A DNA stretch of 24,000 nucleotides from Gibbsiella quercinecans (lineage in GTDB: Bacteria > Pseudomonadota > Gammaproteobacteria > Enterobacterales > Enterobacteriaceae). The position numbers and the translations under genes are program-made. The DNA is taken from assembly GCF_002291425.1 (NCBI RefSeq), contig NZ_CP014136.1, forward strand, positions 4,888,925 to 4,912,924, read 5' to 3'. Numbering within the stretch: the first letter of the stretch is position 1; every line of letters starts with the position of its first letter. Below the pieces are notes generated by a model. It ran no database searches, had not been told where the DNA came from, and worked only from the letters and a program-made list of their open reading frames with translations. Positions 13,904 through 18,128 of the stretch are shown in pieces.

Positions 13904-14188
13904 TTAGCATGGCATACGCATTAAAGCTGATTTTAGACGTTTCAGTAATGATTCGCTTTTTAGGCAGTCTTTCGGGCTTATATTATCAAGAACAGGGATT
14001 TTTTTATCAATCCAATCAAAACTTTCCTTTGGACCTAATAGGCCATAAATAACAACAGCAATATCTAAATGTCCTTCTAATTTCTTCGCAAGATTACGTG
14101 CAGTATCATCCAAATAATCCTGCGAATAAAAATCAGAGAAATCATTCCACTTTTCATCACCTGTATAATGATTTTCTAACGGAGGCAT
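13904..14188 (-). CDS. Small immunity/antitoxin-like protein, paralog A, with Xre/MbcA/ParS (DUF2384)-like C-terminus
   Basis: 94 aa. Aligns with 16746..17027 and 17501..17782 (WND, D-A-V-I-G, W...P.L....P.DCL....LL.RL...L). It follows an Rhs tail and toxin remnant. Confidence 0.6.
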   Translation of the reverse strand: MPPLENHYTGDEKWNDFSDFYSQDYLDDTARNLAKKLEGHLDIAVVIYGLLGPKESFDWIDKKIPVLDNISPKDCLKSESLLKRLKSALMRMPC

Positions 14189-14190
14189 AC

Positions 14191-14460
14191 CTAAATTCCT
14201 AAGAATGATATTAAGCGATATAACACATCGCTTCGAGCTACATATAAAATATTATTCCAATCATGTAATACATATAATTCTTGACCATTTACTGGATCGT
14301 AGTTTACCTGCTTTACATATTGATGGTAAAAATTTTCAGGGAGTTAACCCTATTGGATCGAACCAAGTAAGCGTATTCGGCGCGTACTGATAAAGATTAA
14401 TCCTGCTCGCCATATCTGATCAAATGCTACTGCCCGTCCGTTCATTCCTATTGACTATGG
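14191..14460 (-). pseudogene. Orphan Rhs core-tail remnant plus degraded toxin stub
   Basis: The minus strand reads ...INLYQYAPNTLTWFDPIGLTP-stop (compare the main Rhs GLNLYQYAPNPLTWIDPLGL). Another frame then continues about 50 codons to a TAG at 14191. Internal deletion and stops lie upstream. Confidence 0.6.
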
Positions 14461-14554
14461 CTGACGCGCATTCTACGTTAGATAGCGCTGTTTTTAAAAT
14501 CGCTCAGCCGGATCACTATAGGCGCGTGTTGACTACCGGCCCAATAGGGGCGAC

Positions 14555-14790
14555 ACCTCCATTGTTACGTTGTTCAATGCGGGCGCGATATGCGCCAGTT
14601 TAAACAGCGTATGCGCCAACGGATTGTAGCCAACTACGGTCTGCTCGCACTGCCGGGCATATATATTTTGTGGTTGCGTTGCCGCGCACTTTTTTCGGCA
14701 AATTGTTGCGTAAGCAATTGGCGCTTAGAGGATGAGGTACGGCATTGGGATGGCGAAGTGGGGCAGAGAGCTCTGCTTTGGGTTGTTGTT
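14555..14790 (+). pseudogene. Degenerate duplicate of the acyl-CoA synthetase 3' end and downstream spacer
   Basis: Aligns by eye to 11455..11696 at roughly 80% identity, for example tattttgtggttgcgttgccgcgcac in both copies. A 1-nt deletion and substitutions break the frame. ORF 14590..14850 is an artefact of this fragment. Confidence 0.7.
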
Positions 14791-15180
14791 CTAAACTTGC
14801 CCTATCTCAAGGGATTTATTCTTTTCCCCTCCCCAAGGATCATCCATTAAATACATCGGTATTATTGGCGTTTCAGAAGGAATGAATGTTAACTTATAAA
14901 ATATTTCATCCCCTTCACAAACCTCATAATAAAGAGAATATAATTTTTCTTCAAAGCTCAAATCTATTTTGAACTTCTCTGTGACCGAAGCAATCTCAAT
15001 GTTTTCATTGTTTCTGATATAAAACGGAACAACTATACAACGCTGAGTGTCTTTATCTATTTTAAATTCATTTGCTAAAGCCAAATGAATATTAGCGCCA
15101 AAAGTATCCTCTGGTAGGGGATCAAAAATCACATAGTCCTTATGAATAACAGCCCCTTGGTTAATGTTTTTTCTCCCCAC
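14791..15180 (-). CDS. Putative immunity protein of the orphan Rhs (possibly ComJ-like nuclease-inhibitor fold)
   Basis: 129-aa low-GC ORF immediately 3' of the orphan Rhs C-terminal domain. Start is GTG at 15180, or GTG at 15132 overlapping the toxin stop as GTGA. Weak pattern resemblance to ComJ (VVPFYIRNNENIEIASV...FKIDL). Confidence 0.5.
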   Translation of the reverse strand: MGRKNINQGAVIHKDYVIFDPLPEDTFGANIHLALANEFKIDKDTQRCIVVPFYIRNNENIEIASVTEKFKIDLSFEEKLYSLYYEVCEGDEIFYKLTFIPSETPIIPMYLMDDPWGGEKNKSLEIGQV

Positions 15181-16240
15181 TGACTTAATTCCGCATCAAA
15201 TGCCCTGGAACGAACTTGAATTTGGCTGTGAGATATAAGTAAATCGACGGTGTAATTATGTTTCATTTCATTGATAGCCTTTTCTCCAGTTATTTTGTCT
15301 CTGAACAGCTTATAATGCAGTCCGATTTCCCAGTCAAGGTATGTCCTCTGCTAACGTAGATTTTGCGGGGGCTCTTGCTGCGGGCTTCGCTCCAGGCGGA
15401 AAACTGCCCTTGCCACACCAGGTTGCCGTGCTCGTCGGTCATGCGTGTCGGGAGGCGTTCAGCTCGGTATGGTACCAGTAGACTTCGCTGCTTTCGCCGA
15501 TGCTGTCGACGCGCGCCAGCGGTTCCCAACTGTTCTCTTGATAAAGGTAACGCGTAGCCTGTTCAGGGTGCAGGCTGCTTTGTTCACCTACCATCCGCAG
15601 GCCGTTCCAGTGGAACGTGATGGTTTCCGGTTCGCCGTGGTGCGGGTAGAGGATTTTTTGGCTGCGGCAGCCCAGGGCATCGTAGCAGTATTCCGCCCGT
15701 TGATAATGCGGGTTGCCGGTAAAAATCACGCTGGCCAGCCGGTGTTCCGCGTCATAGCTGAAACGTTGTTCCTCACCCTGTGGGCCGTTGTGGCGCCAGT
15801 TCAGGCGGCCAAAGCCCCAGCGTGTGCCGCCCAGGCGTTGCAGCAGGTTGTGCCAGACCGCGGCCGAATACTGTGGGTGAGCTGCCCGCGTGCATCGTAG
15901 CCGAAGCGGCTTTGCAGGCACTGCGGCCCCGGTTGGCCGATACCGTCTTCGGTGAACATCTGTTGCACCTAAGCGCATTCTAAGCCAGCCGTGTGTGTAG
16001 CTGTGCCGTGAGTTCGCCTCCGGCGGCCAACGGATATTCGATGCTCTGTGTGAGTGCTCCAACCTATCATAGCCATACTGCGTGCGGTGCCTGGCATAGT
16101 CGGTTTGCGCCAGCAGGCGATCGCCGTTGTCATAATCGAACTGCCAGCGATTGTGGTTGGGGTTGAGCAGGGCGGTCATGCGGCCGAAGCGATCGTACTG
16201 ATAGCGGGTTTGCCGGCTCGCCGGATCGGTTTCGCTCACT
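15129..16240 (-). pseudogene. Orphan rhs fragment (5'-truncated, internally deleted core) with its own short C-terminal domain
   Basis: 15297-16240 is homologous to the main rhs at 19149-20693, at about 90% or better by eye. It carries deletions of about 0.5 kb, about 60 bp, 18 bp and 9 bp plus frame breaks, and the ORF track splits it into 15439..16272 and 15290..15529. After ...HYKLFR it diverges into a 56-codon low-GC tail (DKITGEKAINEMKHNY...). Confidence 0.8.
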
Positions 16241-16294
16241 ATATAAATAGTCAAAGTATACCTAAATCTCATATTACAGACTCAATATAACAAA

Positions 16295-16657: not shown

Positions 16658-16745
16658 TGTGTTAAAATAAACCTCGCCTTAAAAATAAATTAATTTTTGA
16701 TTAATCGACCTATTGGTTATACAATCAAGGTTCACATGCAATGTT

Positions 16746-17027
16746 TTAGCATGGTAACTCTATTAAATATTGCCGTAATCGTTTAATTAAATCAGGGTCA
16801 TTTAGGCAATCTAAAGGGCGGATATTTTCAAGCATTTTTACTTTTCTCTCCATCCATTCAATCCCTCCTTTTAACCCTATTTTCCCATTTATAACAATAG
16901 CCATGTCGCGTGCACCGTTCATTTTTTCTGTTAAAATATCCACATCCGCATTGGAATATACCTCATCAAAGGATTTAACAAGATCATTCCAAGCGTTATC
17001 ACCAAGATAATCCAATTCTAACCCCAT
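16746..17027 (-). CDS. Small immunity/antitoxin-like protein, paralog B, with DUF2384-like C-terminus
   Basis: 93 aa ending in WMERKVKMLENIRPLDCLNDPDLIKRLRQYLIELPC. Aligns with paralogs A and C. Confidence 0.6.
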   Translation of the reverse strand: MGLELDYLGDNAWNDLVKSFDEVYSNADVDILTEKMNGARDMAIVINGKIGLKGGIEWMERKVKMLENIRPLDCLNDPDLIKRLRQYLIELPC

Positions 17028-17115
17028 ATTAAAATCCTCTAAATGATATTAAGTTTGTGCCCGTTGGGTTACGGGCAGAAGGTGCGGCCATTATGCCAGA
17101 AGAAATTTCAGGCAG

Positions 17116-17490
17116 TTACTGTGGATATATCAGATAAAGCAAAACCTGAATCGGTGGGGAAATTGCTGATTCTTCAGAAGCCGTAAAACGACATGGATAA
17201 CGGATAGTTGATTCGAAAATTCTAACGAAGCTATGAGCGAGATAATGAATTACACCTCGGAATATTATAGCCAGTTCTACCCCATCAATAAGTCTGTTGA
17301 GCAACGCATCCAGCCTAGCGGATCCACTCAAGTTAACGGATCTCCGACATAAGCATAGATATTCAACCCACCCGCCAACCCTAGCGGCTCCGGCGAAATA
17401 ATTTATCTGATTTTCGGGTCGTACTACCGGCTTTTGTAGTAAATATCTTTCGTAACGTCGCCATAGTGTAAGGAATTGCTTACGCTACCG
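17116..17490 (-). pseudogene. Second-lineage Rhs/YD tail remnant plus short C-terminal domain
   Basis: The minus strand reads DIYYKSR-TAG-YDPKIR-stop, then IISPEPLGLAGGLNIYAYVGDPLT-stop-VDPLG..., then DALLNRLIDGVELAIIF... across three frames. It has the RYYDP...DPxGL architecture but is broken by stops and frameshifts, and its sequence differs from the main Rhs tail. Confidence 0.55.
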
Positions 17491-17500
17491 GCATATTTCT

Positions 17501-17782
17501 TTATGGCATCCGCATTAAACACTCCCGAAGACGCCTGAGTAACTCGGGATCATCAAGACAGTCTAAGGGTCTGATTTTGTCAAGCATAGGTACTTCCTGT
17601 TCTATCCACCATTCTCCTTCTTTTATCCCTCTTTTTCCGTAAATAACGATTGCTAAGTCAATGGCGCCATTGAGTTTACTAGATAAAATACGTGCATTTT
17701 CATCTAGATAATCCTCAGCGTAGAGCTTTACAAAGTCATTCCAGTCAGCGTCACTAGAATAATACCTTTCTAATCTATGCAT
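17501..17782 (-). CDS. Small immunity/antitoxin-like protein, paralog C, with DUF2384-like C-terminus
   Basis: 93 aa from ATG 17782. The ORF track's TTG at 17803 is less likely, because the ATG start gives the same length and N-terminal alignment as A and B. The ATG lies 1 nt after the RES toxin stop. C-terminus: WWIEQEVPMLDKIRPLDCLDDPELLRRLRECLMRMP. Confidence 0.65.
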   Translation of the reverse strand: MHRLERYYSSDADWNDFVKLYAEDYLDENARILSSKLNGAIDLAIVIYGKRGIKEGEWWIEQEVPMLDKIRPLDCLDDPELLRRLRECLMRMP

Positions 17783-17783
17783 A

Positions 17784-18128
17784 TTAAAATCCAAAGGAAA
17801 CAATCAAACTTGAACCAGTAATATTTTGTGCTGAAGGAGCTAATATCCCGTCATATCCTTGAGACTTAGCCCATGATCCAATCTGATGAGTAACATCATA
17901 TTCACTTCCAGTAATATCTTTTAAGGATACACCAGGTTGATCTCTGACATTTGGACGTGTCAGATCCAAGACATTATTGAGCTGCACTTTTTTGCTGGTT
18001 AGCTCACGAGTAGATAAATTAACTTTCTATGCATTAACTTCAGCAAGAGCTGTTTTCCGAGAGTTTGCACCATACACACCACCCAAACCTTTTCCTGTAT
18101 ATCGATGGTTTGCGCCCCTACATTCCAT
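17784..18128 (-). pseudogene. RES-domain toxin, 5'-truncated and interrupted by an in-frame TAG (18027-18029)
   Basis: Reads MECRGANHRYTGKGLGGVYGANSRKTALAEVNA-stop-KVNLSTRELTSKKVQLNNVLDLTRPN...YDVTHQIGSWAKSQGYDGILAPSAQNITGSSLIVSFGF. This is the R...Y...S..AL.E ... DLT ... G.DGI..PSA layout of RES domains. Confidence 0.65.

Follow-up and report, generated by a model that had tools for sequence, protein, structure and literature searches.

Three putative orphan immunity genes behind decayed RES-domain toxins in an Rhs locus of Gibbsiella quercinecans

The DNA examined here is a 24,000-nt stretch of Gibbsiella quercinecans (RefSeq assembly GCF_002291425.1, contig NZ_CP014136.1, positions 4,888,925 to 4,912,924 of the forward strand), which we call the window at its full length and whose own numbering is used throughout. 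On its minus strand, downstream of a main rhs gene, lie three intact small open reading frames (ORFs) of 93 to 94 amino acids (aa), named A, B and C, which are present as originally predicted and each of which stands directly behind the remnant of a RES-domain toxin (Table 1). The layout is that of Rhs orphan cassettes, with modules on the same strand as the main rhs gene and downstream of it, core-end remnants (in modules A and B), and small immunity ORFs. In our view the region is likely to represent the orphan tail of an Rhs locus, i.e., of a T6SS (type VI secretion system) polymorphic-toxin locus. The contig SMBC01000007.1 (assembly GCA_004342245.1) is 100% identical to the window across 13 kb, and the toxin lesions described below are identical across the Gibbsiella assemblies L001-L004.

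Table 1. Features of the orphan tail and its surroundings (positions in the window; asterisks within sequences are stops; HMM, hidden Markov model; HTH, helix-turn-helix; CDS, coding sequence).
Feature	Position	Strand	Evidence or remark
Immunity paralogue A, 94 aa, intact	13904..14188	-	Full-length family alignment
50-codon toxin stub, module A	14194..14343	-	Last ~7 codons (14194-14214, LISFLGI*) RES-derived
Rhs core-end remnant, module A: MASRINLYQYAPNTLTWFDPIGL	14345..14413	-	tblastn; 75% nt identity to L066 5490-5558
Immunity paralogue B, 93 aa, intact	16746..17027	-	ATG 1 nt past RES-tail stop
Final 18 RES codons APSARNPTGTNLISFRGF*, module B	17032..17085	-	tblastn, 83-89% identity
Decayed Rhs core end, module B: R*YDPKIR*IISPEPLGLAGGLNIYAYVGDPLT*VDPLGWMRCS	17295..17429	-	Three in-frame stops
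Immunity paralogue C, 93 aa, intact	17501..17782	-	Family HMM, E 1.4e-47
RES-domain toxin pseudogene, module C	17787..18130	-	Pfam RES; truncated, frameshifted, nonsense codon
symE-family (type I toxin) gene, 3' half	18139..18325	+	84% nt identity to Lonsdalea populi plasmid SymE CDS; 74% aa identity over 47 aa
Hairpin and T-run AAAAAGCCGGAAGCGATCTTAATGATCCTTCCGGCTTTTTT, read as intrinsic terminator	18334..18374		2 nt past 68-aa gene
68-aa ORF, presumed immunity to C-terminal toxin of main Rhs	18376..18582	-	Directly after rhs stop; no family
C-terminal ~140 aa of main Rhs, past DPLGL	18591-19010	-	Toxin of no assigned family
Main rhs	18588..22352	-	ORF; YD-repeat shell, core-end motif DPIGL...DPLGL, unrelated ~140-aa C-terminal toxin
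IS3-type transposase, orfA (HTH) and orfB (DDE/rve-like, runs past window end)	22443-24000	+	Adjoins main rhs 5' end
120-aa ORF with CPYCGS zinc-ribbon-like motif, no family	16295-16657	-	Array homologues
Frameshifted orphan Rhs fragment	15290-16272	-	Duplicates part of main rhs core, 90-94% nt identity
ComJ-like protein	14791-15180	-	PF11033, E 7.6e-11
ADP-ribosylglycohydrolase, Tri1 equivalog, 369 aa	12743-13852	-	NF041672, 576 bits (cutoff 490)
RelB/DUF6290-like antitoxin (105 aa) and ParE-like toxin (106 aa; PF05016 in L001)	11697-12331	-	Directly beyond Rhs tail

The frame that runs up to gene C had been read as a RES domain, and profile searches bear this out: the 67-aa ORF alone scores 23.6 bits against Pfam PF08808 (gathering threshold 23.2), and the same frame with its TAG codon repaired scores 49.9 bits (E 4.6e-13). 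The motifs R (NHRY), E (LAEV) and S (APSA) are readable in that order and align to the invariant R35, E56 and S125 of intact homologues, and over 109 aa the remnant is 81% identical to the intact protein P0045. Gene C does begin 1 nt past the toxin stop, with TAA at 17786-17784, a spacer T at 17783 and the ATG at 17782. The nonsense codon and the 5' truncation named in the original prediction are both there, together with a third lesion. TGG has become TAG at 18029-18027, a call made from the tryptophan found at that codon in intact homologues; a +1 frameshift lies at about 18113-18118, with KWNVGA in the neighbouring frame and ANHRY in the main frame; and all sequence upstream of about 18130 has been lost, which takes in the Rhs core end plus some 25 residues from the start of the toxin (~140 residues in intact homologues). 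Intact relatives, 70-89% identical, reach about 35 residues further upstream via PKGRKVNRTVYRFEEPDRMSTTWTTHKWN to an Rhs core end of the form DPIGLAGG...DPLGL. A symE fragment adjoins the truncated end of the toxin, with the deletion or rearrangement junction at about 18131-18138, and since symE and RES are 5'-truncated at exactly one point, a single rearrangement probably removed the 5' ends of both.

Gene C is 96-97% identical at the protein level to copies in Brenneria (L032 and L053), and the DNA of module C is 95.6% identical to L032 over 619 nt. The closest intact-looking RES orphan also lies in L032, the locus of Brenneria sp. L3-3Z (5959-6411, 87% aa identity to the window remnant). 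An in-frame 4-codon deletion there takes out the catalytic NHRY motif (WNVGATGTGLGG), so that the toxin is disarmed in Brenneria too, and the C-type immunity gene is intact.

Only one RES fossil, that of module C, had been predicted; we find three, one ahead of each of A, B and C. Gene B had been placed about 90 nt past a short orphan C-terminal domain, when in fact it starts 1 nt past the stop of a RES tail (17085-17032). The decayed Rhs core end of the same module was found by tblastn with intact orphan C-terminal toxins (E 8e-9 to 2.5e-11), and the catalytic core between core end and tail has been deleted or has decayed. This decayed unit occurs in Brenneria as well (g21c3; 88.9% nt identity over 552 nt), and in Pantoea allii a similar one, with the last 19 RES codons left, stands ahead of a relative of B. 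Protein B is 91% identical to P0006 of Brenneria sp. and 67% identical to the products of Pantoea genes, and Pantoea ananatis (L074) has an intact 151-aa RES orphan of the cognate type, P0057, directly ahead of a B-type gene. A 71-aa ORF at 17116-17331, which is probably the short C-terminal domain of the original prediction, lies in another frame than the decayed core end, has no family match and was treated as spurious.

That A follows a degraded toxin stub was correctly predicted, and what had been missed is that the stub ends in about 7 RES codons. Window positions 14214-13900 are 88.6% identical to the junction of RES end and immunity gene in Pluralibacter gergoviae (L066 5975-6289), and a repeat, D5, is common to the A and B junctions (14192-14215 and 17030-17053). 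Protein A is 89% identical to P0005, which in P. gergoviae directly follows an intact 1472-aa PAAR-Rhs-RES protein. The rest of the stub (14215-14343, minus strand) is, with the Rhs core end included, 42% similar over 62 aa to a short C-terminal fragment in Brenneria L032 (3432-3614), and a frameshift lies at about 14343-14345. The Brenneria fragment matches Tox-ART-HYD1 (E 4.7e-4), and the stub itself has no Pfam match. The likeness of the stub to the RES N-terminus is 34-36%, derives mostly from the Rhs core end, and is slightly bettered by the fit to a HYD1-type fragment. The non-RES part may be an N-terminal fragment of a HYD1-type ADP-ribosyltransferase (ART) C-terminal domain, and two unlike orphan toxins may have been joined in the stub by a deletion.

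All three RES toxins of the window are dead, none of the three fossils having an intact reading frame. In each module the immunity ORF starts 1-2 nt past the toxin stop, and every deletion spares the last codons of the toxin, the start of the immunity gene and the conserved junction GGATTTTAATATG / GGAATTTAGGTATG. A purine-rich stretch in this junction is, by its spacing to the ATG, a putative ribosome-binding site of the immunity gene.

The identity of the toxins was pursued with intact homologues. A profile of intact RES domains had MbcT as its only significant match among Protein Data Bank (PDB) sequences (E 4e-7). The fold was tested on the intact homologue P0050 in place of the window remnant: its AlphaFold2 model has a mean predicted local distance difference test score (pLDDT) of 95.1, and Foldseek returned NatT, MbcT (template modelling score, TM, 0.74), ParT (TM 0.59-0.66), P. 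putida RES and VPA0770 at E-values of 2e-6 to 7e-4, with diphtheria toxin next in the list. Profile matches and predicted structure together support the assignment of the toxin remnant to a RES domain with an ART fold.

The original prediction also held that RES domains serve as Rhs cargo with immunity proteins of this kind, and intact systems in other genera agree with it. With an alignment of intact RES C-terminal domains as the query and one genome per species, our scan gave 61 loci, which were then analysed with HMMs. A closely related RES domain is encoded in 47 of them, and a member of the immunity family lies directly downstream in 45 of these 47, the two exceptions being a contig end and one Phycisphaeraceae metagenome-assembled genome (MAG). 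In 30 of the 47 the toxin is the end of a full-length Rhs frame of 1235-1532 aa, and all 30 have the immunity gene directly downstream. Pfam finds PAAR, DUF6531, RHS repeats, RHS and RES in the proteins of Pantoea sp. B65, P. corrugata, B. cenocepacia and Erwinia typographi; with the Pluralibacter protein added, PAAR is present in all five Rhs-RES proteins checked. A DcrB-family gene lies just upstream of the 1472-aa PAAR-Rhs-RES gene of P. gergoviae. In a Paraburkholderia MAG (L035 6404-7009), a full-length Rhs-RES gene is followed by two immunity-family genes in tandem.

Proteins A, B and C align from end to end, as had been predicted, with global identities of 38% (A-B), 51% (A-C) and 52% (B-C) in place of the 40-55% estimated by eye, and each matches the HMM of their family at E 1e-40 to 1e-47. 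An exhaustive HMMER search recovered at least 278 clusters (50% identity, E<=1e-3), nearly all of about 93 aa and matched end to end. The resemblance to the toxin-binding domain of Xre/MbcA/ParS antitoxins that had been suggested stays below threshold in the window proteins one by one and emerges at the level of the family. Two results weigh against it: over residues ~57-92, A, B and C score 12.7-14 bits (E 0.05-0.13) with Pfam Xre_MbcA_ParS_C (PF09722), whose gathering score is 24.5 (NCBIfam Xre_ParS_antitoxin likewise reaches E~0.08 only), and a Foldseek search with the model of A gave E-values of 0.55-4.0 over some 52-67 aligned columns for most of the nine antitoxin chains found. Nevertheless, the separate lines converge. 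PF09722 is the sole Pfam family to recur: it is matched by 32 of 39 close members at E<=1 and by 61 of 118 diverse members at E<=0.01, the best of them at 1.9e-8, and no other family competes with it. The best PDB sequence match of the family profile is residues 93-143 of Xre in the P. putida RES-Xre complex (6gw6_B, E 0.044), with ParS and VPA0769 lower. The AlphaFold2 model of A is all-helical (pLDDT 91.4), and its nine best PDB matches are all antitoxins of RES toxins (MbcA, Xre, VPA0769, ParS), with a probability of 0.5-0.95 in seven of the nine chains. The family HMM is also co-linear with the DUF2384 part of canonical HTH-DUF2384 antitoxins that lie beside free-standing RES genes (L054 and L056). 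No HTH family was matched in the 118 members, as the original prediction had it for the window proteins, and Imm51 was matched neither among the 39 close members at E<=1 nor among the 118 at E<=0.01. Combining these individually weak lines with the RES identity of the partner, our best reading is that the ~93-aa proteins are HTH-less relatives of the toxin-binding C-terminal domain of Xre/MbcA/ParS.

Each window copy is far closer to the copy of another genus (89%, 91% and 96-97% aa identity for A, B and C) than to its paralogues in the window (38-52%). Since the closer relatives lie in other genera, and since A and B have Rhs core-end remnants of their own, the sequence comparisons indicate that the three cassettes belong to one family and were acquired separately, not duplicated in situ.

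The mechanism that we propose starts from an intact cassette, which consists of the C-terminal ~140-aa RES domain of a PAAR-Rhs protein and a ~93-aa immunity gene 1-2 nt past the toxin stop. In donor strains, the Rhs shell would enclose the RES domain, and the T6SS would deliver it by way of PAAR. Inside a rival cell it would most likely consume nicotinamide adenine dinucleotide (NAD+) or, less likely, ADP-ribosylate a protein. By analogy with the MbcTA, Xre-RES and ParST complexes, the cognate 93-aa protein would bind the toxin and occlude its NAD+ pocket. In Gibbsiella, the toxin of module C has been killed by 5' truncation, frameshift and nonsense codon together, and the toxins of A and B have lost their catalytic core. 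The surviving last 7-18 RES codons in A and B carry a purine-rich, Shine-Dalgarno-like stretch, putatively for the immunity gene, and the three orphan genes would give Gibbsiella resistance to three RES toxin specificities.

Substitution patterns fit such a role for A and B. The ratio of nonsynonymous to synonymous divergence (omega) is 0.09 for A against the Pluralibacter copy (synonymous divergence, dS, 0.55), 0.14 for B against the Brenneria g21c3 copy (L073; dS 0.30), where both genes stand behind the shared dead toxin, and 0.13 for B against the Pantoea allii copy. In the g21c3 comparison the gene itself has diverged by 8.2% and the flanking dead toxin by 13.4%. The RES remnant of module C gives an omega of 0.90 on 19 changes against Brenneria L032. 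These values indicate purifying selection on A and B and neutral evolution of the RES remnant relative to its Brenneria counterpart. With the toxins destroyed and the immunity genes intact under purifying selection, we regard A, B and C as probable orphan immunity genes against the RES-tipped Rhs effectors of neighbouring Enterobacterales (e.g., Pluralibacter, Brenneria, Pantoea and Erwinia).

Several points weigh against this reading. The comparison of B with Pantoea allii is saturated (dS 1.9), that of A sets an orphan against a copy which still holds its toxin, and that of C with Brenneria (omega 0.33-0.74) counts 4-7 changes, too few to show selection. A strong terminator also lies between the main rhs operon and the orphans, at 18334-18374. 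Its hairpin has a folding free energy of -30.1 kcal/mol and a z-score of -6.9, with 0 of 200 shuffled sequences equally stable, and it parts the main rhs gene and its presumed immunity gene from the orphan modules. A promoter consensus scan gave 18 promoter-like sites where 15.3 were expected, i.e., no excess over chance. With this terminator ahead of the orphans and promoter sites at chance level, expression of the three genes can only be presumed; the consensus scan for promoters and terminators did, for its part, miss the terminator that folding later found. A further consideration is that RES chemistry varies and includes NAD+ glycohydrolase, NAD+ phosphorylase and protein ADP-ribosylation. 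In the literature searched, no experimental characterisation of a Rhs-RES toxin or immunity protein of this clade was found.

The same observations could be taken as those of a graveyard, in which an Rhs tail is decaying and the small ORFs owe their integrity solely to short length and recent acquisition and serve no present function. The IS3-disrupted main rhs gene, the death of every orphan toxin, the upstream terminator and the want of convincing promoters all fit, as do the recent arrival of module C (95.6% identity to Brenneria DNA) and the uninformative omega of C. Yet B has survived whole in Gibbsiella, Brenneria and Pantoea even though its toxin had already died in the cassette they share; omega is low for B (0.13-0.14) and for A (0.09); B has diverged less than the dead toxin beside it (8.2% versus 13.4%); and no deletion reaches into the last codons of the toxin or the start of the immunity gene. 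We consider simple decay unlikely for these reasons. A reservoir of spare toxin and immunity modules, through which recombination with the main rhs gene could exchange the toxin in use, has a precedent in Salmonella, where such switching was shown for orphan Rhs toxins (PMC3967940). The layout would permit it here: the orphans share the strand of the main rhs gene and lie downstream of it, and core-end homology is retained in A and B. However, no RES toxin of the window could be revived by recombination: in C the core end is gone and a nonsense codon and a frameshift remain, A and B are without a catalytic core, the core end of B has three stops, and the main rhs gene is itself disrupted by an insertion sequence. 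Nor is there, in the Gibbsiella assemblies L001-L004, any in-frame fusion of these cassettes with intact RES to the main rhs gene, and their lesions are identical. A reservoir is for these reasons very improbable.

On the evidence of the window and of related loci, it is just as hard to credit the small proteins with a role as antitoxin or regulator of a conventional chromosomal RES toxin-antitoxin (TA) module elsewhere, or as anti-phage proteins, that were placed in the Rhs tail by coincidence. Their homology to the Xre/MbcA/ParS toxin-binding domain would suit such a role, and a ParE/RelB-like TA pair does lie nearby (11697-12331). In contrast, the proteins have no HTH, each copy stands directly behind a RES remnant with an Rhs core end, the family follows Rhs-type RES and not a free-standing TA toxin in 45 of 47 related loci, and canonical RES TA loci (L054, L056) use longer HTH-DUF2384 proteins. 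A last alternative leaves the orphan-immunity role in place and concerns the chemistry, the Rhs-RES domain being a ParT-like protein ADP-ribosyltransferase and not an NAD+ consumer. ParT is among the close fold matches (TM 0.59-0.66), and the ART fold, with diphtheria toxin next in the list, speaks for it. Against it, the only significant PDB sequence match is MbcT, which also has the best TM (0.74) and is an NAD+ phosphorylase, and most characterised RES toxins (P. putida RES, NatT, MbcT) deplete NAD+. We give this chemistry a minor but real chance, and favour orphan immunity to RES toxins that would consume NAD+.

RES domains as Rhs and T6SS cargo are not new, having already been predicted in silico. 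Zhang et al. 2012 (PMC3482391) described RES in polymorphic toxins with RHS repeats and T6SS, gave Imm51 as the immunity, and confined DUF2384 to TA systems. B. cenocepacia BCAM2253 is a predicted PAAR-Rhs-RES effector labelled 'NAD+ glycohydrolase' (PMC6612558), and P. fluorescens F113 Tfe2 is another, whose 92-aa partner Tfi2 was described as lacking homologues or recognizable features (PMC7970981). Our genome scan recovered a B. cenocepacia locus (L037) and many loci of the P. corrugata/brassicacearum group in which PAAR-Rhs-RES is followed by a member of the immunity family. The predicted effectors share toxin clade and layout with the modules described here, and at 92 aa Tfi2 fits the size of the family. 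Unlike in those systems, the toxins here are dead and immunity alone survives, in three diverged copies. These papers left the ancestry of the immunity protein unrecognised, and a DUF2384 ancestry of Rhs-RES immunity was found in no paper of the literature searched. In UniRef, a few members of the family already bear Xre/MbcA/ParS-like or DUF2384 names.

The toxin fold with its R/E/S motifs and, probably, the toxin-binding C-terminal domain of the antidote are shared with the TA modules RES-Xre, MbcT-MbcA, ParT-ParS and NatT-NatR. In those modules the toxin is a free cytoplasmic protein, whereas here it is the C-terminal cargo of a PAAR-Rhs protein of ~1480 aa. The antidote likewise differs, at ~93 aa and with no HTH, a helical N-terminal segment LExxYxGDxxW specific to the family, a gene immediately downstream of the toxin and no sign of autoregulation. 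Neither the N-terminal HTH of the antitoxin nor the free-standing toxin of a type II Xre-RES module is found in the window. The orphan immunities to Rhs NADases in Serratia (PMC10539506) are likewise immunity genes kept downstream of rhs without a functional cognate toxin; the present case differs in that three diverged immunities are directed at one toxin family and each has a visible toxin fossil, with protection here being what the sequences suggest. A further ART-fold, NAD-consuming C-terminal Rhs toxin, Tne5 with its immunity protein Tni5, comes from Pluralibacter gergoviae (PMC13285283), the species that also holds the intact RES cassette matching A. We rejected the identification of Tne5 with this RES toxin: Tne5 belongs to a different family and is a different protein (1503 aa, with a Lys/Glu pocket, versus the 1472-aa Rhs-RES of P. 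gergoviae), and its paper names no RES domain, MbcT or DUF2384.

The window therefore adds to a known kind of system, and not a new one, a triple example of orphan immunity, readable toxin fossils and a probable ancestry of the immunity protein. If that ancestry holds, toxin and antidote would have been co-opted together from (or to) a TA module into a T6SS/Rhs weapon, and MbcTA, Xre-RES and ParST would offer a structural template for an effector-immunity pair left unannotated in published T6SS surveys, as well as an annotation for several hundred 'hypothetical' 93-aa proteins. Immunity genes that outlive their toxins under purifying selection are the signature expected of an acquired interbacterial defence. 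For work on specificity, the family offers cognate and non-cognate pairs of the three types, whose intact partners are at hand in Pluralibacter, Pantoea ananatis and Pantoea sp. B65. More tentatively, and with what we would put at slightly less than an even chance, the ~93-aa family may be an unrecognised and widespread immunity, the RES/DUF2384 pair having moved between type II TA and T6SS Rhs systems with the antidote shedding its HTH, and Gibbsiella may stockpile three specificities against the Rhs-RES toxins of co-inhabitants of its trees (Brenneria, Pantoea, Erwinia, Lonsdalea-like). If so, past warfare among the bacteria of the tree community could be read from orphan-immunity islands.

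The main rhs gene upstream of these modules is disrupted. Its frame upstream of PVHIPTG is cut at about 22433 by the insertion of an IS3-family element, so that the PAAR region is missing or displaced, and the L001 copy matches DUF6531, RHS_repeat and RHS without a PAAR match. Searches with its C-terminal toxin found no Pfam, NCBIfam or PDB sequence match, Ntox47 appearing below threshold only; a 74% identical fragment of this domain and its 68-aa partner lie in the Pantoea ananatis array (L074 1424-1778). A near-identical sequence of ~45 nt to the terminator behind that pair follows RES-immunity genes in Pantoea sp. B65 (L005), Erwinia oleae (L028) and Pluralibacter (L066), and the hairpin may serve as a terminator at the end of a cassette and move together with the modules. 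An Rfam scan of 12000-19500 returned no match.

Other genes of the orphan tail may have a similar history. The Tri1 equivalog lies 52 nt past paralogue A with no Tre1-like toxin nearby, and its gene is 94% identical at the nucleotide level to one in the Brenneria immunity array (L073 6401-7593). Tri1 is the ADP-ribosylarginine hydrolase that gives immunity to the T6SS toxin Tre1, and the equivalog is probably another orphan immunity protein. A role as a second RES immunity was considered and rejected on its score as a Tri1 equivalog (576 bits) and its occurrence apart from A-type genes (L073). The orphan Rhs fragment ahead of the ComJ-like gene is without a C-terminal toxin, its frame ending ...GLHYKLFRDKITGEKAINE. 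ComJ is a nuclease inhibitor, and the arrangement makes the ComJ-like gene a probable further immunity gene that has outlived its toxin. Homologues of the 120-aa ORF, at 41-44% identity, occur in Rhs orphan arrays of Pantoea allii (L070 5181-5540) and Erwinia oleae (L028 3869-4210), and it too is probably an orphan immunity protein, of an uncharacterised kind. The RelB-like and ParE-like pair at 11697-12331 is an ordinary type II TA module.

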